Positions 12,363 through 64,000 of a stretch of 64,000 bases of DNA are shown one piece after another (position 1 is the first letter of the stretch; each line of letters opens with the position of its first letter). Below the pieces are notes generated by a model. That model made no database searches. It saw nothing but the letters and a program-made list of their open reading frames with translations, and was not told the origin of the DNA. The translations under genes were made by a program, and so were the position numbers. The DNA is from an uncultured Clostridia bacterium (lineage in GTDB: Bacteria; Bacillota; Clostridia; Christensenellales; CAG-314), in NCBI GenBank assembly GCA_947624235.1, contig CANQJK010000001.1, positions 4,153 through 68,152 on the forward strand, given 5' to 3'.

Positions 12363-12516
12363 TGCTTTAATATTTTACTAAAATACTTTTCCTTTGTCAA
12401 ATGCTGACGTCGCCATACCGATACATCATACAATATAAAACATAATTCGTCCGATTTGGTGCAAATACAACATGTCAAGCAATAAAATACGATTACCGCA
12501 ATAAAAAAACCTGTAC

Positions 12517-12631
12517 GTTATAAAGCGCGGTTTCCAAGCGGTCGCTATCGACGATCGGAGTTCGCTTAACAAAGTACAGGAAGATTTAGCATATATTGAA
12601 GAAGCTACTCACACCCCAACATTTGACATAG
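12517..12631. repeat. copy 1 of the roughly 115-bp direct repeat (IS end-adjacent segment plus terminal repeat)
   Basis: TTATAAAGCGCGGTTTCCAAGCGGTCGCTATCGACGATCGGAGTTCGCTTAACAAAGTACAGGAAGATTTAGCAT...ACACCCCAACATTTGACATAGA. It differs from copy 2 at only a handful of positions. Confidence 0.8.
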
Positions 12632-12742
12632 ATTCACCTTTATTGAAGGGAAGAACAACAAGATAAAGATACTGAAAAGGAACGCATACGGAGTGAGGAA
12701 CTTCGAGAGATTCAGGAAAAGAATACTGCTTGCATGCGGGTA
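12626..12742 (+). pseudogene. ISL3-family transposase, C-terminal fragment only
   Basis: Frame reads ..FTFIEGKNNKIKILKRNAYGVRNFERFRKRILLACG*. This matches the conserved ISL3/IS1167-type C-terminus (EGxNNxIKxxKRxAxGxRNFxxFxxRIL). No upstream coding sequence remains. Confidence 0.65.
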
Positions 12743-12748
12743 AAAGAA

Positions 12749-12784
12749 GCCCTCTCTCGGTGGCAGTACTGCCATCGAGAGAGG
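12749..12784 (+). terminator. strong hairpin downstream of the transposase fragment
   Basis: CCCTCTCTCG-GTGGCAGTACTGCCAT-CGAGAGAGGG. No clean T-run on the plus strand; CTTCTTTT follows on the minus strand. Confidence 0.4.
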
Positions 12785-12845
12785 GAACAAACCGATTCAA
12801 TTATATGTTGGGAAAATACCTACACCCCAACATTTGACATAGAGC

Positions 12846-12963
12846 CTTATAAAAGCGCGGTTTCCAAGCGGTCACTATCGACGAACGGAATTCGCTTAAC
12901 AAAGTACAGGAAGATTTAGCATTGTTGAAGAAGCTACTCACACCCCAACATTTGACATAGAGC
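12846..12963. repeat. copy 2 of the roughly 115-bp direct repeat
   Basis: Same sequence as 12517..12631 with a few substitutions. Flanked on both sides by the 25-bp end sequence. Confidence 0.8.
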
Positions 12964-13035
12964 CAAATTATTTATATATTTATCTATTTTATTGTATTCT
13001 CCCAATATGTAATATCGGAAAAATTGACGCTTATT

Positions 13036-32565: not shown

Positions 32566-32825
32566 TTGACATATACCGAAAAGAAAACTAAAATAAAAGT
32601 ACAATCGAATCCGGTAGGTGAGGCTACCATGGGGATACGGGTTGCTACCGACTCAACGTGGAGACACGCGGTGTTTGGGTAGCAGGATTTGTCGAAAAAC
32701 AAGGCATATCCTAATGCAACTACACAGCCCCATGATGCTAAAACTTGTAATGGTAGGCGTTGTTTCCGTCATATTACGAAACATTTGAGTCTGTACTGTT
32801 GCAAGTGCAGATTTTTCATTTACCA
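32566..32825 (+). promoter_or_regulatory. promoter plus M-box (ykoK-type) magnesium riboswitch upstream of mgtE
   Basis: TTGACA (32566), 17 nt, TAAAAT (32589). The aptamer at about 32605..32762 carries GGTAGGTGAGGCT, GGGGATACG and ATGCTAAAACTTGTAATGG, which closely parallel the B. subtilis M-box. A weak hairpin plus ATTTTTC precedes the SD. Confidence 0.85.
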
Positions 32826-36461: not shown

Positions 36462-37310
36462 CTAATCGAGCTTTTTGACCGTCAGATATCTGTTAAGATT
36501 TTCCGACGGCGTAAGAGTGGTCGTAGCGGAGGAAGTCAACACCAGCGTAAGCACGTTTCCCGCAGTCAGCGCAACTATCGCAGAGCCGTCAAGCGCAGAC
36601 GTGGTACCTGTGTTGAAGTCCTCGGTAACGGTCGCGGAAGGAGTAGGCGCGCCGTCCGTGTTCACGCTCAATGTCAGCGTTGCCGCGGGCGTCACGTTGC
36701 CTATCAGTCCGTAGTTTATCTCGTAGTTACCGCTTTCGGTCACAGTGATACTGTTTGTTCCGTAGGTCACATTGGAAAGGGGCATCGTGCTTTCAAGCGT
36801 CAACGTTGTAGGCGTATCCGCCGTCAAGTCAACAGTGTCGCCTGCCAAAGAATACAAACCGCCGTAAGCGGACAACCCCGTTGTTGAAACGCCCGGTGCG
36901 CCCGTTGGACCTACGGGACCTTGGATACCCTGCGGACCTGTGGGGCCTACGAGACCTTGTATGCCCTGGATACCTTGCGGGCCTGTTGCTCCCGTTGCAC
37001 CTGTTGCACCTTGAAGTCCTGGCGGACCTGTGGGACCAACGAGACCTTGTATGCCTTGCGGACCTGTGGGACCAACGAGACCTTGTATACCTTGCGGACC
37101 TGTTGCTCCCGTGGCACCGGTGGGGCCTACGGGACCTTGGATACCTTGCGGACCGGTTGCGCCTGTGGCGCCGGTCACGCCGAACCCGGGAGGCCCCATT
37201 ATACCCTGCGGACCGGTGAAACCGCGCGGACCGCGTACACCGCGCTCGATGATTACAGTATTTGTGCCACTTTCGTTGTGGCAACAACAATTGTTACTCC
37301 AACAACTCAT
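36462..37310 (-). CDS. collagen-like (G-X-Y repeat) protein with BclA-like C-terminal domain and Cys-rich N-terminal cap
   Basis: Start moved to [15 protein letters not shown] (AGGAGAG SD). About 38 GXY triplets ([19 protein letters not shown]...). The beta-rich C-terminal domain of about 140 aa resembles exosporium BclA-type proteins. Confidence 0.85.
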
Positions 37311-56415: not shown

Positions 56416-58899
56416 CTATTCGCGCGACGCTTCTGTGCAGTAGCGGACGACGCGGATGATGGGGATACCGCCACGGTGGTCCTTGGGGGCGCGACCTTTG
56501 TGGTTTTTGTTTTCGACGCTGACTTCGGCGCTATCCACAACGTAGGTGGACGCCGCGTCGTACAGCGCCAACTTGCAATGCACGCCGTTGATGTAGGTGG
56601 CAAACGCAACGCAACTTCCGTTGTTGCCGAATTCGATGCCCTTTGCGCCCTTGCAATTACGCGCATGGCGGGCAATTTCCTTGACGGACAGGCGTTTCAT
56701 AAAGCCCTTGTTGGTCACAAGCAACACTTCGCCCTTGTCCTTTGCCACTTGTCCGGCAAACACGACGTACTCGTCCGTTTCCAGATTGATACAGTGCACA
56801 CCGCCTGCCACACGTCCCTGCAATGGGATCTCATTTACGTCAAAGCGAGTGCACCCGCCTCGGTCGGTGACGTAGAAGATATCCGAATCGGGTTTGAGCA
56901 CTTCCACCTTGAAGATCTCGTCTCCCTCTTTGCCTTTGTAGCCCTGAAACACCGATTTGAGCAGTTGATATTCGCTCCAAGCAGAGCGTTTGATAAGTCC
57001 CTGGCGGGTGTAAAACAGCAATTCTCCGCCGACGTCTGTGTTATTTTGAGCGAACACAGCCACGGGCAACTCGCCCATTTGCGCCTCGGGGAATATCTGC
57101 GTCAAAGTGACGCCTGCGTCGCGATAGCGAATTTCCGGCAGATCGCCCGCCTTTATCCTGAAACAGTTGCCCAAATTGCTGAAAAACATCACGTTGACGT
57201 CCGTTTGCGTTTCCACTGCGCGCGTCAACAGTTCGGCGTAGGTAGAACCGATAGCGTCCTTGGTGCTCATGTTGAAGTTTTTGGAGGGGATACGCTTGAT
57301 AGTATAGTCTACGGCGACGCCCACCACCACCGTTTCGACGGGTTTTTCGTCCGTTTCGCTGGGGATGACGGCGTCCGCTTCCGTTTTGCAAATTTCCGAA
57401 AGGCGGGGAGTTTTGTACAGCCGTTTCAACGCCAACATTTCCGTTTTGATAAGCTCCATTTGCTCCCGTTTGCTGTTGATGATGATGTTCAAGCGGGCTA
57501 TCTGGTGCTCCAATTCCTGCAATTCGTTTACCAATTTGTTAACTTCCAATTTGGTTATGCGCGCAAGACGCAGGTCCAAAATGGCTTGTGCCTGACGTTC
57601 GGAAAGGTCGAACCTATCCCGCAATTTGTTGCGCGCGTCCGAAGTTGAGGAGGCGTTTTTGATTATCTGTATCACCTCGTCGATATTTTGCACGGCAATG
57701 ACAAGTCCTTGCAAAATGTGTTCGCGTTCCTTTGCCTCTTCCAATTCGAACTTGCTTCGGCGCAGAATCACGTCCCGTTGATAGCTGACGTAGTAGGCGA
57801 TAATATCCAGCAAACCCATAAGTTGAGGCTTGCCGTCGGCTATTGCCACCATGTTTATGCCGTAGGACATCTCCAATTGCGAATACTTGAACAGGTTTTT
57901 TATCACCGAGTTGGGATCGCAGTCCTTGCGCAGTTTGATGACCGCGCGCAGACCTTCCTTGTCGCTTTCGTCCACTATCTCGGCTATGCCCTGAAACATA
58001 TCCTTCTTTTCGTCCTTCAAAGCGGCGATCTTTATCAGCATGTCCGATTTGTTTATGCCGTAGGGTATCTCGGTGATGACGATGTTGCGCCTGTCTCCGG
58101 GAGCCACCTCTATGTGCATTTTGGCGCGGACGGTGATCTTGCCTTTGCCCGTGTCGTACGCCTGCAACAAGCCATCACCGGGGATGATGTATCCGCCCGT
58201 GGGGAAGTCCGGTCCCTTGATAATCTTCATCATGTTGGCAAGGGATATCCTTGGGTTGTCGATAAATGCCACTGTGCCGTCGATGACCTCGGCAAAGTTG
58301 TGGGGAGGTATGTTTGTGGCAAGCCCCACCGCTATGCCCGTTGCGCCGTTTACCAACAGGTTGGGAAAGCGCCCGGGGAGCATGTCCGGTTCCTTGGTGG
58401 TGTCGTCGAAGTTGCGCGACCAACGAACGGTGTCCTTTTCGATATCCCTCAGCAGTTCCAACGCGCAGGGGGAAAGTTTCGCCTCGGTGTAGCGCATTGC
58501 GGCCGCACTGTCGCCGTCGATGTTGCCGAAGTTGCCCTGTCCGATGATAAGGGGCACGTTCATGGCAAAGGGTTGCGCCATACGCACCATTGCGTCGTAT
58601 ATCGAACTGTCGCCGTGTGGGTGATAACGTCCCATGCAGTCGCCCACTATACGCGCCGATTTGCGCGTGGGCTTGTCGGGAGTGTTGCCCTGTTCGTACA
58701 TGGAGTACAATATGCGACGTTGCACGGGCTTTAAGCCGTCCTCTACGCGGGGCAACGCCCTATCCAAAATGACGTGCTCGGCGTACGGCATCATAGATTC
58801 GTGCATCACCACTTCCATGGGCTTGGTGAGCAGGTTGGAGCCGTCCTCCATTTTGACTATGTCGCTGTTTTCCAGATCGAAAATATCCATTTGCTTCAT
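56416..58899 (-). CDS. type IIA DNA topoisomerase subunit A (GyrA/ParC family; no GyrA box seen, so possibly topoisomerase IV ParC-like)
   Basis: 827 aa. [27 protein letters not shown], and catalytic [11 protein letters not shown]. No QRRGGKG-type GyrA box in the C-terminal beta-pinwheel region. Confidence 0.9.
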
Positions 58900-58911: not shown

Positions 58912-60873
58912 CTATACCAGTTTGTTGAACAGGGCGTCGTTGTCCTTGTTGAAATCGGCGTTTTCGGTGATGTACGCCTTGCGTGCGTCTATCTGATCGC
59001 CCATAAGAGTGGTCACCATGCGTTCCGCCTCGGAGATGTTTTCTATCGTCACGCGCATGAGGGTGCGCGTTTCGGGGTTCATGGTTGTCTCCCACAGTTG
59101 CTCGGCGTTCATCTCGCCCAAGCCCTTGTACCGTTGCAGATCGTATCCGCGACCGAACTCCTGCACTATCTCCTGCAACTCGTAGTCGTCGTAGGCGTAG
59201 CGCACCTTGTCCTTTTTGGAAATTTTGTACAGGGGTGGCATGCCAATGTACACATGCCCGTCGGTGATGAGCTCTCGCATGTAGCGGAAGAAGAATGTGA
59301 GCAATATCGCCCTGATGTGCGCGCCGTCTTGGTCGGCGTCGGACAAAATGATTATCTTGTCGTATTTGAGGTCGTCTATGTTGAAGTCCTCTTCGCCAAT
59401 GCCCGTGTCGAGGGCGTTTATCAAAGAGCGTATCTCCTCGTTGGCAAGCACCTGATCTATGCGCTTGCGCTCGGCGTTCAACGGCTTTCCGCGCAGGGGA
59501 AGTATCGCCTGAAACCGACGGTTGCGCGCCTGCTTTGCCGATCCGCCCGCGCTGTCGCCTTCTACGATGAACAACTCGTTCTTTTTGACGTCCCGTCCCG
59601 TGCAACTTGCCAACTTGCCCACAAGGGTGCTGTTGAATATGGAGTTCTTTTGACGGGTGACTTCCTTTGCCTTGCGCGCCGCTTCGCGTACCTTTGCAGA
59701 GGCAATGGACTTTTTGATTATCGTCTCGGCGTCCCCCGCGTTTTTGGCAAGAAGTTCGGTAAACGCCTCCGTCGCCAACGCCTCACAGGCGATTTTTGCC
59801 TCGACGTTGCCCAACTTGGTTTTGGTTTGCCCTTCAAATTGCACGTTCGCCATCTTGACCGACATCACAAGCGTTATGCCCTCGCGGAAGTCCTCGCCCA
59901 ACAAGTTGTCGTCCTTGGCTTTGAGAAAGCCTTTGGCGCGAGCGTAGTCGTTCATCACCTTGGTCATTGCCGATTTCAAGCCCGTTTCGTGCATGCCACC
60001 CTCTCCCGTGGGTATGTTGTTGACGTAGGAGATGAGGTTTTCGGTGTAGTTTGTGGTGTATTGAAAGGCAAATTCCAACTGCAAAGTTTCGTTGGAGCCC
60101 GACCAGTAAAACGGTTTGAGGTGCAAAGGCGCCTTGTTTTCGTTGAGGTACAGCACAAAGTCTTTCAACCCGCCCGTGTAGCAAAAAGTTTCGCTCTTGA
60201 CGTTGCCGTCGTCGTCCTCTCCGCGCTCGTCCGTCAACACAAAGGTGATGCCCTTGTTGAGGAAGGCAAGCTCCTTGACGCGCTTGTGTATCACCTCGTA
60301 GTCCATCTGAATGTTTTTGAACACCCTGCTGTCGGCAAGGAAGGATATCGTGGAACCGTGCTTGTCCGTTTTGCCCACCTTGGTGAGATGATCCTTGGGC
60401 ACGCCCGAAAGCACCTTGCCGTCCTCGCGCTCGGGGCTGTGGAAGTGCTGTACATACTCGAAGCCTTCCCTGCACACCGTGACGGTGAGCCATTCCGAAA
60501 GCGCATTGGTGACGCTGGCGCCCACGCCGTGCAGACCTCCGCTGAACGCGTAGTTTTCGTGATTGAACTTTCCGCCTGCGTGCAGTTGCGTAAACACCAC
60601 CTCTACGCCGGAAATTTTGAGTTGGGGGTGCTCGTCTACGGGTATTCCGCGCCCGTTGTCGCTTACCGTGACGCTACCGTCCTTGTGAAGAGTGATCTCC
60701 ACCTTGTCGGCATAGCCGTTTGTGGCTTCGTCCACGGCGTTGTCCACTATCTCCCACAATAGGTGATGCAACCCCGTGCGCCCCGTCGTCCCGATGTACA
60801 TGCCCGGACGCATACGCACCGCGTCCAAACCTTCCAGTACCTGAATATCTTTTGCCTCGTATGTCGTGCTCAC
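58912..60873 (-). CDS. type IIA DNA topoisomerase subunit B (GyrB/ParE family; several ParE-like signatures)
   Basis: True start is GTG 60873 (GGAGG 7 nt upstream), giving MSTTYEAKDIQVLEGLDAVRMRPGMYIG. GHKL ATPase, TOPRIM EGDSAGG, and PLRGK. NALSEWL and TTMNPETRTL resemble Bacillus ParE more than GyrB. The 874-aa track ORF is an artefact. Confidence 0.9.
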   Translation of the reverse strand: MSTTYEAKDIQVLEGLDAVRMRPGMYIGTTGRTGLHHLLWEIVDNAVDEATNGYADKVEITLHKDGSVTVSDNGRGIPVDEHPQLKISGVEVVFTQLHAGGKFNHENYAFSGGLHGVGASVTNALSEWLTVTVCREGFEYVQHFHSPEREDGKVLSGVPKDHLTKVGKTDKHGSTISFLADSRVFKNIQMDYEVIHKRVKELAFLNKGITFVLTDERGEDDDGNVKSETFCYTGGLKDFVLYLNENKAPLHLKPFYWSGSNETLQLEFAFQYTTNYTENLISYVNNIPTGEGGMHETGLKSAMTKVMNDYARAKGFLKAKDDNLLGEDFREGITLVMSVKMANVQFEGQTKTKLGNVEAKIACEALATEAFTELLAKNAGDAETIIKKSIASAKVREAARKAKEVTRQKNSIFNSTLVGKLASCTGRDVKKNELFIVEGDSAGGSAKQARNRRFQAILPLRGKPLNAERKRIDQVLANEEIRSLINALDTGIGEEDFNIDDLKYDKIIILSDADQDGAHIRAILLTFFFRYMRELITDGHVYIGMPPLYKISKKDKVRYAYDDYELQEIVQEFGRGYDLQRYKGLGEMNAEQLWETTMNPETRTLMRVTIENISEAERMVTTLMGDQIDARKAYITENADFNKDNDALFNKLV

Positions 60874-60885
60874 TTGTTTACCTCC

Positions 60886-60960
60886 GATGAGTTTGTCTTG
60901 TGAATTTTTTGAATAAGTTTGTCTTGTGATTTTTTGAATGAGTTTGTTTTGTGAATTTTG
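60886..60960. repeat. three tandem 25-nt repeats ending about 6 nt upstream of the B-subunit ribosome-binding site
   Basis: Plus strand GATGAGTTTGTCTTGTGAATTTTTT / GAATAAGTTTGTCTTGTGATTTTTT / GAATGAGTTTGTTTTGTGAATTTTG. The minus-strand unit reads AAAAAATCACAAGACAAACTYATYC. Confidence 0.9.
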
Positions 60961-61660
60961 TTTGTTGCGTTCCCGTAAACGCGCGGAGATGTGGCTTGCC
61001 CGTATAAGCGCAGGGACGTTGTGCGTTTTCCGCACTGCCCTACATGTGCCCGAAAAGCCTGTTGCATAGAAAGAACCGCTTTCAACCGCTTGCAAGGGGC
61101 TACCGAACGACCAAAACAATGTCGCCTTGCCTACTTCCATTGCGCGGGAACGTTGTGCGTAAATCTGATGTACGCACCCGCAAAATAGACGGTTAAGAAC
61201 AAAGACAAATTTGCCTTGTGTTTTTGTCTGATGCCACCCCGTATGCGCTCGGTTGTATAGCCCGCTTTCCGTAAACGCGGGAAAGGTTGTCGCATAGAAA
61301 GAACCGCTTTCGACCGCTTGCAAGGGGCTACCGATCGAACAAAACGATGTCGCCCTGCCCACTCTTTGCGCGGGGACGTTGTACGTTTTCTCGTAGATCT
61401 GATGTACGCACCCGCAAAATAGAGGGTTGAGAACAAAGACAAATTTGCCTTGTGTTTCTGTCTGATGCCACCCCGTATGCGCGCGGTTGCATATTCTGCT
61501 TTCCCGTAATGGGCGAAAGGTCGCACCCCACCCCAAAGGGCGTTGAACTTATACCCGTTTGCATTGTGCGTTTTCCCCACTGCCCTGCATGTGCCCGAAA
61601 AGCCTGTTGCATAGAAAACATTGCCTTTTCAACGCTTGCAAACCGCACTTTGTCGGCGCG
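60961..61660. repeat. nested/tandem repeat region of unknown function (two units of roughly 226-235 bp plus partial copies)
   Basis: Unit 1 (61061..61286) and unit 2 (61286..61520) are collinear and closely similar. A 55-nt module GACGTTGTGCGTTTTCCGCACTGCCCTACATGTGCCCGAAAAGCCTGTTGCATAGA recurs at 61013 and 61562. The hairpin module CTTTCC-N9-GGAAAG recurs 2-3 times. Confidence 0.85.
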
Positions 61661-61720
61661 GGGGATATGCTTTATACAGCAAACAGACCTATGCGCCGAG
61701 GAGAAAATTCACTATATAAA

Positions 61721-61749
61721 ATTATATCATGTATAGATATTTATTGCAA
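61721..61749 (-). promoter_or_regulatory. consensus sigma-A promoter firing toward the repeat region and the topoisomerase genes
   Basis: Minus strand TTGCAA (61749..61744), exactly 17 nt, TATAAT (61726..61721). Confidence 0.65.
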
Positions 61750-61819
61750 GAGATATTTTTATATTTATTCATACAATTTTGCGCAATTTGAGGGACAAAT
61801 TTGTTGATACAGAATAACT

Positions 61820-61874
61820 TGCATAATTATTTACATTTGTGCATATTTATACACACAGTATGCATATTTATGCA
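61820..61874. promoter_or_regulatory. three phased TGCATA-N2-TATGCA-type palindromes (candidate operator array)
   Basis: TGCATAATTATTTACA (61820), TGCATATTTATACA (61840), and the perfect palindrome TGCATATTTATGCA (61861). Spacing is 20 and 21 bp, and they lie 70-125 bp upstream of the -35 at 61749. Confidence 0.5.
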
Positions 61875-61976
61875 CGGAAAAACACCAACGCACCGCTCAT
61901 AACTAATAAACGCAAGGAAAAACAGCGCAAAAAATAAAACAGCAAATGGTAAAAGCAAAACCGCCGAGATATTTAT

Positions 61977-62019
61977 GCAAAAGGGCGACCGATCGCTCGA
62001 TTTGGAGCATCGGTCACCC
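61977..62019 (-). terminator. intrinsic terminator after the hydrolase gene
   Basis: Minus strand GGGTGACCGAT-loop-ATCGGTCGCCC followed by TTTTGCATAAAT. Confidence 0.75.
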
Positions 62020-62055
62020 AAGATTGACGAACAAAATTTTGCTTGGTCGGTGGCT

Positions 62056-63027
62056 CTACCGCCTATGAAAGAGTCCGCGCTTTTTGGGTGGGGCGACAAC
62101 TTCTTCGGTGTGTTCTTCTGCCTTTTCGGGGACGTATTTGTTGAGCCAATCGAGCACGTCGTTGTACACCTGCTCTTTGCATTGTTCGTTGAGTATCTCG
62201 TGGCGCGCGCCTTCGTACAGGTGCATGGTCAAGTCGGAAACGCCCACTTTTTTTTCGTAGAACGCTTCAAGTTTTTTAACCCCATTGCCGTAATTTCCAA
62301 CGGGATCGTCCCCTCCCGAGATGAGCAAAATGGGCGTTTCGGTGTTGATCTGCGAGTAGTTTTCCTTGCTGTACAGGTGAGAAATTCCCTCCATAAAGGA
62401 GCGGTAAAAGTTGGCGGAACAGGTGAATCCGCACATCTCGTCGTCGTTGTACTTGGCAACTTCGCTTTCGTCGCGGTTGAGCCAGGCGTTTTTGCCGTGG
62501 AACTTCTTTTCGTACGTTTTGAAGGACAAGTTTACGATAAGTTCCGCAGGGTGCCGACCGCCTTTGTGACGGCACATAGAACGCGCTATCACACCGCACA
62601 GGGTGAAACTTGCCCCCTTGATGTAGTTGGAACCGCACACGATGTACCCGTTGACGTCGGGGTGTTGCTCGATAACGGCTTGCGTGATGAAGCTTCCGTA
62701 ACTGTGCCCCATCATGAACAGAGGCAGATCGTACTGCTTGCGACAGTAGTCCAACAGGGCAAGCTGATCGCCCACGTTGTTGCCCCACATATCCCCCGCC
62801 TCGTAGCCGAGACTGTCTTGTTCGGCGGTGAGACCGTGTCCGCGATGATCGTTCATCACCACATAAAACCCGTGCGCATTGAGAAAACGCGCAAAATCGT
62901 CGTAGCGCGCCGAGTGCTCCGCCATGCCGTGGGCAATTTTTACAACTCCGCGAGGTTTTTTGACGTCGTCCCAAACGTAAAGAGCGACTTCCTTGCCGTC
63001 GTGCGATACAAAACGCGATTGCTTCAT
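62056..63027 (-). CDS. alpha/beta hydrolase (lysophospholipase / monoacylglycerol lipase-like)
   Basis: 323 aa. HGMAEHSARY oxyanion region, nucleophile elbow GHSYG, and a C-terminal charged tail. Confidence 0.85.
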   Translation of the reverse strand: MKQSRFVSHDGKEVALYVWDDVKKPRGVVKIAHGMAEHSARYDDFARFLNAHGFYVVMNDHRGHGLTAEQDSLGYEAGDMWGNNVGDQLALLDYCRKQYDLPLFMMGHSYGSFITQAVIEQHPDVNGYIVCGSNYIKGASFTLCGVIARSMCRHKGGRHPAELIVNLSFKTYEKKFHGKNAWLNRDESEVAKYNDDEMCGFTCSANFYRSFMEGISHLYSKENYSQINTETPILLISGGDDPVGNYGNGVKKLEAFYEKKVGVSDLTMHLYEGARHEILNEQCKEQVYNDVLDWLNKYVPEKAEEHTEEVVAPPKKRGLFHRR

Positions 63028-63149
63028 AATTACCTCCTTGCTTACCTTTTATTGTACGCCGATTTTATGAAAAAGTCAATACACTCACTCGCCGAAACAC
63101 ATGTCGGTGGGCAAATATATTTATCGGCGGGTTTGCATACACTATCACT

Positions 63150-64000
63150 ATGAAAATCGTATTTAGCGGGGGCGGAACGGCAGGTCACGTTATGCCCAAC
63201 TTGGCTTTGATAGACAAATTGCAAGCGCACACGGTGTACTACATCGGCACCGACGGAATGGAAAAGGGACTTGTGGCGCCCCTCGTCGCGGACAAACGCG
63301 TGACGTATCTGCAAATATCCGCAAGCAAACTGCAACGCAAGGCGACTTTGGGCAATTTGCTGTTGCCCTTTCGCCTCATCAAAAGCGTGCGTGAAGCCAA
63401 AAGGCATTTGCGCAAAATTCAGCCCGACGTGATATTCAGCAAAGGCGGATATGTGGGCTTGCCCACCGTGATCGCAGGCAGACTGCTCCACATCCCCACC
63501 GTGATACACGAAAGCGACATGTCCGCAGGGCTTGCCAACAGGATATCGGCAAAATTCGCCGACGTGTACCTATCGGCTTTTCCCTGCGACAAGCGCGCAA
63601 AGACGGTGGGCGTGATAGTGAGGGAAGTGTGGAAGGGGGACAAAGACGCGGGACTTGCCACAATGGGTTTTGACGGCTCCAAGCCGATATTGTTGGTGAC
63701 GGGCGGAAGTCTGGGCGCAAAAGTCCTAAACGACGCTGTGACAAACTGTCCGAATTTGGCAAAGACATTCGACATATTTGTGATAACGGGCAAGGGCAAA
63801 CGCATACACTGCCCCTTTGTGCACCAAGCGGAATTTGCCAACAACATGTGCGATCTGTTCAAGGCGTGCGACGTGTGCCTAACTCGGGCGGGAGCAAATA
63901 TCCTTGCGGAACTCACCCTTGCCCAAGTGCCCTTTGTAGCCGTGCCCCTCACCAAGCAATCGCGGGGAGAGCAAGTGGCAAACGCGCGCTACTTTGCCCA
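63150..64000 (+). CDS. murG: undecaprenyldiphospho-muramoylpentapeptide beta-N-acetylglucosaminyltransferase MurG (5' part; runs off window end)
   Basis: Not in ORF track because truncated. ATG 63150 opens MKIVFSGGGTAGHVMPNLALIDKL...IHESDMSAGLANR...LVTGGSLGA...LTRAGANILAEL, the MurG signature motifs. Confidence 0.9.
   Translation, partial: MKIVFSGGGTAGHVMPNLALIDKLQAHTVYYIGTDGMEKGLVAPLVADKRVTYLQISASKLQRKATLGNLLLPFRLIKSVREAKRHLRKIQPDVIFSKGGYVGLPTVIAGRLLHIPTVIHESDMSAGLANRISAKFADVYLSAFPCDKRAKTVGVIVREVWKGDKDAGLATMGFDGSKPILLVTGGSLGAKVLNDAVTNCPNLAKTFDIFVITGKGKRIHCPFVHQAEFANNMCDLFKACDVCLTRAGANILAELTLAQVPFVAVPLTKQSRGEQVANARYFA

Follow-up and report, generated by a model that had tools for sequence, protein, structure and literature searches.

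A lineage-specific tandem repeat block in the predicted leader of a topoisomerase IV-like operon of an uncultured Clostridia bacterium

The gyrA RNA motif, a candidate family of Rfam, is located upstream of gyrase genes in Pseudomonas. A literature search revealed nothing relevant on a known leader of topoisomerase genes or on the phrase gyrA RNA motif. A different kind of element is represented by the large BOX elements of pneumococci, which are modular, contain hairpins and stop-poor frames, and are co-transcribed with neighbouring genes in untranslated regions (PMC3049150). The locus described here lies in a stretch of 64,000 nt from an uncultured Clostridia bacterium (this whole stretch is referred to below as the window). 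About 0.8 kb of nested repeats, reported in an earlier note made from the sequence alone, separate the genes of a type IIA topoisomerase from their promoter.

Like the BOX elements, this block consists of modules in variable number, forms extensive hairpins, occupies a place in a putatively transcribed untranslated region, carries long stop-poor frames that are called as ORFs, and has a lineage-restricted presence. Unlike them, it is known at one locus, whereas BOX elements are represented by many dispersed copies per genome; in addition, one of its modules seems to be native to the leader, and the block has no sequence similarity to anything searched. With tandem segmental duplications and variable-number tandem repeats the block shares head-to-tail units of 234 nt and 25 nt that are missing in sister lineages, and the same gap holds other tandem blocks in relatives; its units, however, have diverged by 12-15%, and patchily. 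Structured 5' leaders and tandem riboswitches are similar to it in their position between promoter and start codon, in more than one copy of a putative domain, and in a GC content above the intergenic level, but the block has no conserved aptamer, expression platform, Rfam match or orthologous conservation. As for the gyrA RNA motif, it too is non-coding and precedes a type IIA topoisomerase gene; it differs in taxon and in size, and no Rfam family, this motif included if release 15 has it, scored in the block at E <= 10. On the whole, the block most resembles a modular intergenic repeat co-transcribed with a gene, and it fits the definition of a tandem segmental duplication, since collinear head-to-tail copies are present in the window and missing in sister lineages. 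The tests for a riboswitch-type leader, namely orthologous conservation and an expression platform, gave negative results. The explanation that we favour, with moderate confidence, is that local segmental duplication expanded the leader of a topoisomerase IV-like operon in this lineage alone and thereby produced the block.

The coordinates of the genes and of the repeat modules are given in Table 1. The intrinsic terminator of the alpha/beta-hydrolase gene (-27.6 kcal/mol, z = -5.0 against shuffles), already recognised in the earlier note, is the upstream edge of the topoisomerase transcription unit. The B subunit scores 879 bits on a model of a gyrase-B subfamily but stays under the curated NCBIfam cut-offs for both the gyrB and the parE equivalogs, and a regular-expression search did not find the GyrA-box motif in the A subunit; for these reasons the pair is treated as putatively topoisomerase IV-like (parE/parC-type). 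The B subunit was also called as part of an 874-aa "fusion ORF". Because the GTG start at 60873 is preceded by a GGAGG Shine-Dalgarno sequence, and the protein read from this GTG is covered in full (100%) by relatives of 653 aa, this ORF is an over-extension of the B subunit into the stop-poor leader. Among the matches listed, the closest relatives belong to uncultured gut Clostridia of animals, including a metagenome-assembled genome from rabbit (B subunit 93% identical) and Candidatus Fimimonas (84%).

Table 1. Features of the topoisomerase locus and of its putative leader (positions in the window)
Feature	Position	Strand	Evidence
Alpha/beta-hydrolase gene	63027..62056	minus	upstream of the topoisomerase pair
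Intrinsic terminator of the alpha/beta-hydrolase gene	61975..62020	minus	hairpin and U-run
Three TGCATAAATATGCA-like boxes, 20-21 nt spacing, in AT-rich DNA upstream of the promoter	61820..61875		repeat search
Conserved sigma-70-type promoter	61721..61771	minus	promoter scan and ten-lineage alignment
Promoter part: TGAATAAATATAAAAA element	61771-61756	minus	
Promoter part: -35, TTGCAA	61749-61744	minus	
Promoter part: -10, TATAAT	61726-61721	minus	
Leader 5' end with UCGGCGC...GCGCCGA hairpin	61642..61715	minus	fold; comparison with relatives
Module A, copy 1 (78 nt)	61564..61641	minus	88.6% identical to 61019-61095; also in contig L087
Spacer between module A copy 1 and unit 2, with degenerate ACGCACAA copy	61522..61563	minus	fourth motif copy, 65%
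Tandem unit 2 (C2 plus A')	61288..61521	minus	repeat search, TRF, alignment
Tandem unit 1 (C1 plus first part of module A copy 3)	61054..61287	minus	repeat search, TRF, alignment
Remainder of module A copy 3 (61019-61053), then partial degenerate unit interior (ACGCACAACGTCCC..., CGCGTTTACGGGAA)	60961..61053	minus	repeat families
25-nt tandem repeat, 2.7 copies, A/C-rich, just 5' of the Shine-Dalgarno	60890..60959	minus	TRF score 119
Shine-Dalgarno GGAGG of the B subunit	60885-60881	minus	read from sequence
True B-subunit start, GTG	60873-60871	minus	read from sequence
Type IIA topoisomerase B subunit (ParE/GyrB-like)	58912..60873	minus	NCBIfam PRK05644, 879 bits
Type IIA topoisomerase A subunit (ParC/GyrA-like)	56416..58899	minus	NCBIfam matches

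Read along the minus strand, the block has the layout A - spacer - C2 - A' - C1 - A - partial C (tail). The two tandem units are the most prominent part of it. Unit 2 (61282-61521) and unit 1 (61054-61287) are 84.7% identical over 242 columns (E 2.7e-74); TRF describes them as 1.9 copies of a 234-nt period with 87% matches, and the start-to-start spacings in the repeat search are 234 and 228 nt. The nested repeats of the earlier note are therefore real, with tandem units 85-88% identical in addition to the module and triplet repeats; two of its details needed correction. The module described as 55 nt long does occur in two copies (61564-61641 and 61019-61095), but its real length is about 78 nt, of which a 54-nt core is 96% identical between the copies; the first 42 nt or so, designated A', are present a third time in unit 2 (61282-61323). 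The core GGACGTTGTRCGT, counted four times, is exact at 61014 and 61374 and has one mismatch at 61148, whereas the fourth copy (61553-61575, an extended 23-mer) is only 65% identical. A partial nhmmer match at 60997-61030 falls within the tail of the block (60961..61053).

The differences between the two units are distributed unevenly. Two patches are 93-97% identical and the remainder is 63-77% identical (bin test p = 0.005), and a pairing between the two conserved patches is predicted. Either selection on an RNA helix or gene conversion could explain this pattern. Each unit also has a core of about 150 nt between the arms of an imperfect inverted repeat, about 23 nt long (CAACCGnGCGCATACGGGGTGGC ... 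GGTAGCCCCTTGCAAGCGGTTG). The GC content of the block is 52%, which is coding-like, while the neighbouring true intergenic DNA has 28-36%. Toward the gene, the 92-nt stretch 60874-60965 before the start codon is poor in G (A51 C20 U15 G6), has a folding energy of -1.9 kcal/mol and is essentially unstructured. The 25-nt unit repeated there, ahead of the Shine-Dalgarno sequence, is single-copy in relatives.

The source is apparently a metagenome-assembled contig, and it might be supposed that the assembly strung strain variants together and that the tandem layout is an artefact. The only other contig of the species found, the independent ENA contig L087, corresponds to positions 63804..61479 of the window at 99.96% identity and ends inside unit 2, which could be taken as a sign of such an artefact; its coverage of about 2x is, however, enough to explain the end. 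L087 was located by an exact match to the hydrolase protein; the B and A subunits of the window had no exact match. In L087 the promoter, module A, the spacer and the beginning of unit 2 are all seen again, so that these are not artefacts of one assembly; the confirmation extends to the start of unit 2, short of the unit 2/unit 1 junction. For the units themselves, a difference of 12-15% together with distinct junctions indicates that the same reads were not used twice. An artefact of this kind is thus highly improbable.

The promoter proposed in the earlier note, TTGCAA-17-TATAAT on the minus strand, scores 10/12 at 61749..61721 in the scan. Its 17-nt spacer carries an extended -10 TG (TTGCAA-17-TGnTATAAT). 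Across ten lineages little or nothing changes in the -35, the extended -10 and the TGAATAAATAT-AAAA element upstream of them: the promoter aligns column by column, and this element, the -35 TTG and the -10 TG-TA-AAT show no variation. Transcription would start at about 61712-61715. The beginning of the leader is similar to the leader starts of L081 and L101 (TTCGGCGC / TTCGGCAC). The scan of the interval 60700-62200 gave no terminator-like site, hence none between the promoter and the gene, in agreement with the earlier reading that no strong terminator precedes the B subunit. An internal promoter that bypasses the block to drive the operon was rejected, as no second promoter-like site was detected from 61720 to 60860, relaxed rules included. 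With a conserved promoter upstream, no terminator and no other promoter, the block is most likely transcribed as part of a 5' untranslated region of about 840 nt, and the giant leader proposed earlier is supported to that extent. Farther upstream, the three TGCATAAATATGCA-like boxes are kept in ten related loci, and TRF finds a 10-nt period at their counterpart in L101; an operator array is one possibility for them, curved DNA another.

The three minus-strand frames of the block are open over 165, 126 and 225 codons, and these stop-poor frames are what lies behind the 874-aa fusion, as had been suggested. The block contains eight stop trinucleotides against 19.7 +/- 3.0 in dinucleotide shuffles (0/1000). 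Since the units are duplicates, the fair figure is that for a single unit, p about 0.04. Protein coding was rejected: the 26 substitutions between the units are spread 8/7/11 over the codon positions in every frame, and the translations have no relatives. The translations of the three frames gave no match at E <= 10 among 5.8 billion proteins, the longest open frame gave none at E <= 0.001 among 1.84 billion representative proteins, and tblastn of the frames against the window and the related loci returned the same species only. The non-coding nature of the block, also proposed previously, thus agrees with these data.

Several known types of element were considered as well. Rfam 15 gave no match inside 60961-61720 even at E <= 10, and ARAGORN found no tRNA or tmRNA in the block, so a known RNA family was rejected; the earlier reader, too, could not assign one. 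The only gathering-level Rfam match in the window is an M-box at 32603-32765. A template or variable repeat of a diversity-generating retroelement was rejected because the substitutions between the units involve all bases and are not adenine-specific. In agreement with the earlier note, the block has no DnaA box and no CRISPR regularity, its periods being 234 nt and 25 nt only, and an oriC and a CRISPR array were rejected.

Each C-A' unit might instead be a lineage-specific cis-acting RNA domain, a tandem sensor or a protein platform, which tunes topoisomerase expression through, for instance, RNA stability, Rho access or a titrated RNA-binding protein. The strong conserved promoter upstream and the elevated GC content are consistent with this, as is the presence of A' in L001 (see below). 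With RNAalifold the two units share a domain of several stems in which neither copy breaks a pair and two pairs have changed on both sides, the latter counted in two copies only; its closing helix, predicted between 61253-61233 and 61103-61085, is formed by the most conserved patches. Besides, the 5' end of the transcript, GUGAAUUUU, is complementary to AAAAUUCAC near the Shine-Dalgarno sequence. However, the same program gives equally unbroken pairs of the same quality on the opposite strand, and covariation is not establishable from two copies. For this reason the argument that some stems are kept through wobble changes is not supported.

Folding energies are likewise close to those of shuffled sequences. 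On the minus strand, z against dinucleotide shuffles is -1.1 and -0.7 for the single units and -1.6 for the whole leader; the units fold about as well on the plus strand (-0.5 and +0.6), where the whole leader has -0.3. The recurring hairpins named earlier are present, but with z from -0.6 to -1.2 they are no more stable than shuffled sequence. Within the full leader the helices of each unit are predicted at low probability: the closing helix has 0.05-0.24, and the GC hairpin, with 0.6-0.8, is the only exception. No expression platform can be seen in the leader: it has no terminator-like site, and the Shine-Dalgarno sequence lies within the unstructured 92 nt. With neither an Rfam match nor conservation in orthologous leaders, an RNA domain of this kind is unlikely. 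The structural or compositional constraint from which the earlier note argued for an RNA family is not borne out either, because the leaders of relatives do not contain the block, its folds are like those of shuffles and Rfam gives no match.

Another possibility is that a small non-autonomous interspersed repeat, modular and BOX- or MITE-like, was inserted into the leader and partly duplicated, its hairpins affecting the operon incidentally. The block is missing from all sister lineages examined, its GC content does not match that of the intergenic DNA around it, its A/C architecture is modular, and the imperfect inverted repeat around the core of each unit would suit such an element. The large pneumococcal BOX elements are also stop-poor and co-transcribed with their neighbours (PMC3049150), and strain-variable repeat and inverted-repeat modules occupy the same gap in the P0024 lineage. 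The search for copies in the host genome covered the 64-kb window, and no further copy, and hence no second locus, was found there. In plasmids, phages and IMG/VR nothing similar was found, and a phage or plasmid origin was also rejected; a scan of JGI metagenomes with a single motif, the A' module, gave four chance matches only. The spurious ORFs have no relatives in either protein collection. No clear target-site duplication is recognisable around the block, and the orthologous leaders are too diverged to be aligned as an empty site. Finally, module A' is apparently native to the leader. A dispersed mobile repeat has no support in the collections searched and in 64 kb of the genome, and such an insertion is unlikely; nor is a dispersed MITE detectable there.

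Orthologous loci were taken from species-representative genomes and from assemblies with close relatives of the B subunit. In the B-subunit tree the window is sister to L001 and P0001 together, with P0012 as the next branch; the B subunit of the P0128 lineage is 94% identical to that of the window. The block is absent at L001, L002, L081-86 and L092-102, where B subunits are 84-94% identical and the promoter is kept. The earlier note had named a lack of conservation upstream of orthologous genes as a refutation, and by this standard a conserved regulatory leader is refuted. The leaders of relatives are about 45-190 nt long overall: 186 nt in L001, 136 nt in the P0001 lineage, about 85 nt in the P0012 lineage, about 105-130 nt in the P0002, P0003 and P0128 lineages, with about 130 nt in P0128, and about 45 nt in the P0024 lineage. 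In the L001 leader, 38 nt on the same strand match module A' in single copy. The match has a Smith-Waterman score of 32, while shuffles score 17.9 +/- 2.1 (0/300). An nhmmer model made from the window copies alone, run over 0.9 Mb, ranked this match first among the hits other than those copies (E = 0.29). This match suggests that at least part of the repeat is native leader sequence amplified in place.

According to the favoured explanation, local duplication within the leader, the ancestral leader would have been about 85-190 nt long. It would have carried a hairpin at the 5' end, the TTGCAA...GGTTCTTT module (A') and, ahead of the Shine-Dalgarno sequence, a stretch rich in A and C. The present order of modules would have arisen from it by slippage or unequal recombination, through a tandem duplication and then partial duplications and deletions. 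The 25 nt next to the Shine-Dalgarno sequence would have been triplicated separately; with two independent tandem events in one leader, the gap looks prone to repeats. Given the patchy divergence of the units by 12-15%, the duplication was apparently not recent. The operon would still be driven by the conserved sigma-70-type promoter, and RNA polymerase would cross a leader of about 840 nt. Translation would start normally, as the unstructured A/C-rich spacer of about 90 nt would separate the ribosome-binding site from the hairpins upstream; because the last 92 nt are A/C-rich and unstructured, this site should be accessible whatever the folding of the block. The block itself is probably not a sensor, and any effect would be generic, through leader length, RNA stability or Rho access. 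Its regulatory effect is possibly modest.

Some observations do not fit local duplication easily. A GC content of 52% would not obviously be yielded by copying an AT-rich leader, and about 150 nt of unit C have no detectable source in any relative, so that part of the block could be imported DNA. The patchy divergence, with patches that pair with each other, could reflect selection on an RNA helix and not neutrality. Stop trinucleotides are depleted on the transcribed strand, and the match in L001 is short. If local duplication is nevertheless the true origin, the block would be an ordinary repeat expansion in a bacterial untranslated region. Even so, it would have some value as a warning: stop-poor repeats give rise to spurious long ORFs, here an 874-aa "fusion", and high GC content with hairpins is no evidence of an RNA family.

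When comparing the gap between the hydrolase and topoisomerase genes in relatives, repeat blocks can be noted in sister lineages too; they are located upstream of the promoter and are unrelated in sequence to the block of the window. The typical gap is about 375-440 nt, and the four longest (the window, L097, L096 and L101) are 1099-1356 nt. The L101 gap contains two tandem units of about 350 nt that are 74-93% identical. Four strains with an identical B subunit, L095-L098, have gaps of 596, 597, 1099 and 1327 nt; the two long ones, L096 and L097, are made of repeated and inverted modules, the number of which varies between strains of this lineage (P0024). Among the other gaps, that of L095 is 597 nt long and that of L092 is 801 nt, including about 500 nt of T/G-rich DNA. 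The gap appears to be prone to local repeat expansion, as perhaps these genomes generally are.

Promoters of gyrase and topoisomerase genes respond to supercoiling. A role at the DNA level can therefore be imagined, in which the block is a spacer or insulator, or offers repeated sites for a regulator or topoisomerase, and tunes a supercoiling-sensitive promoter; this would explain why several lineages independently have extra repeat DNA. At least four lineages do have unrelated blocks beside this one conserved promoter, on one side or the other, their gaps reaching well beyond the typical length, and the ACGCACAACGTYCCCGC motif is repeated. Still, the blocks have no shared motif, a mutational hot spot accounts for the recurrence equally well, and we know of no binding protein. 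We consider a DNA-level role very unlikely. A broader version, in which a probably supercoiling-sensitive topoisomerase promoter of a Christensenellales-like clade repeatedly gained unrelated blocks of 0.3-1 kb that were selected to tune expression, as insulators, roadblocks, or elements of RNA stability or Rho control, with tandem structured RNA domains as the transcribed version in the lineage of the window, is quite unlikely as well. If the recurrence is a product of selection and not of a mutational hot spot, it would mean an unrecognised tuning of an essential, topology-sensitive operon. The comparative point most worth following is the occurrence of different repeat blocks in sister lineages beside one highly conserved topoisomerase promoter. 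Elsewhere in the window, a second local duplication, 95% identical, occurs in another long intergenic gap (12518-12632 / 12847-12961).

The promoter of the topoisomerase operon is accompanied by two kinds of upstream element, the TGCATAAATATGCA-like boxes and the TGAATAAATAT-AAAA element, both of which are kept in ten lineages. In four orthologous hydrolase-topoisomerase loci (L085, L086, L092, and L099), an additional ATATTTATGCA-like box is found approximately 15-25 nt downstream of the -10 hexamer. These elements resemble an array of operators, or else curved DNA, serving a putative conserved regulator of the topoisomerase operon.

Features of the window and of the orthologous loci (L numbers; own coordinates)
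Feature	Location	Strand	Details
Three palindromic TGCATAAATATGCA-like boxes	window 61820-61875		spacing 20-21 nt
Invariant TGAATAAATAT-AAAA element	window 61756-61771		directly upstream of -35
L101 gap block	L101:1460-2125		two ~350-nt units in tandem
L096 gap block	L096:1240-2125		"ATGTCATGTTGAGCG + hairpin" modules that recur, along with inverted partners
L097 gap block	L097:1440-2100		"ATGTCATGTTGAGCG + hairpin" modules that recur, along with inverted partners
L092 gap block	L092:1700-2190		~500 nt of T/G-rich, A-poor DNA
N-terminal extension regions	L099:465-623; L085:1572-1667		run through leader
Local duplication	window 12518-12632 and 12847-12961		95% identical; spacing 329 nt
Palindrome	window 12750-12785		36 nt, perfect stem; inside 673-nt gap 12363-13035
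M-box (magnesium) riboswitch	window 32603-32765	+	Rfam RF00380, 101 bits
Tandem-repeat array	window 36892-37245		periods 9, 18, 36, 54 nt

The hydrolase-topoisomerase gaps of sister lineages carry unrelated repeat blocks of their own, which lie upstream of the conserved promoter. Among strains of the L096/L097 group, which share an identical B subunit, the gap length ranges from 596 to 1327 nt. The source-collection calls for the B-subunit genes of L099 and L085 have N-terminal extensions (called lengths of 707 and 685 aa, respectively); like the 874-aa ORF of the window, they cross the leader, and these extensions look like start-codon miscalls.

Nine nucleotides at the inferred 5' end of the transcript, GUGAAUUUU (window 61704-61712), are complementary to AAAAUUCAC; two copies of the latter (60951-60959 and 60900-60908) lie within the 25-nt repeats close to the Shine-Dalgarno site. 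In the predicted minimum-energy fold, GUGAAUUUU is paired with AAAAUUCAC, and the entire block is looped out. Given the AT-rich sequence, this complementarity could be a matter of chance.

Another long intergenic gap of the window, 673 nt in length, also contains a local duplication; it has no Rfam match at the gathering threshold. The M-box is the sole curated RNA family detected in the window. Every period of the tandem-repeat array is a multiple of 9, and these period lengths are consistent with a putative collagen-like Gly-X-Y coding repeat.
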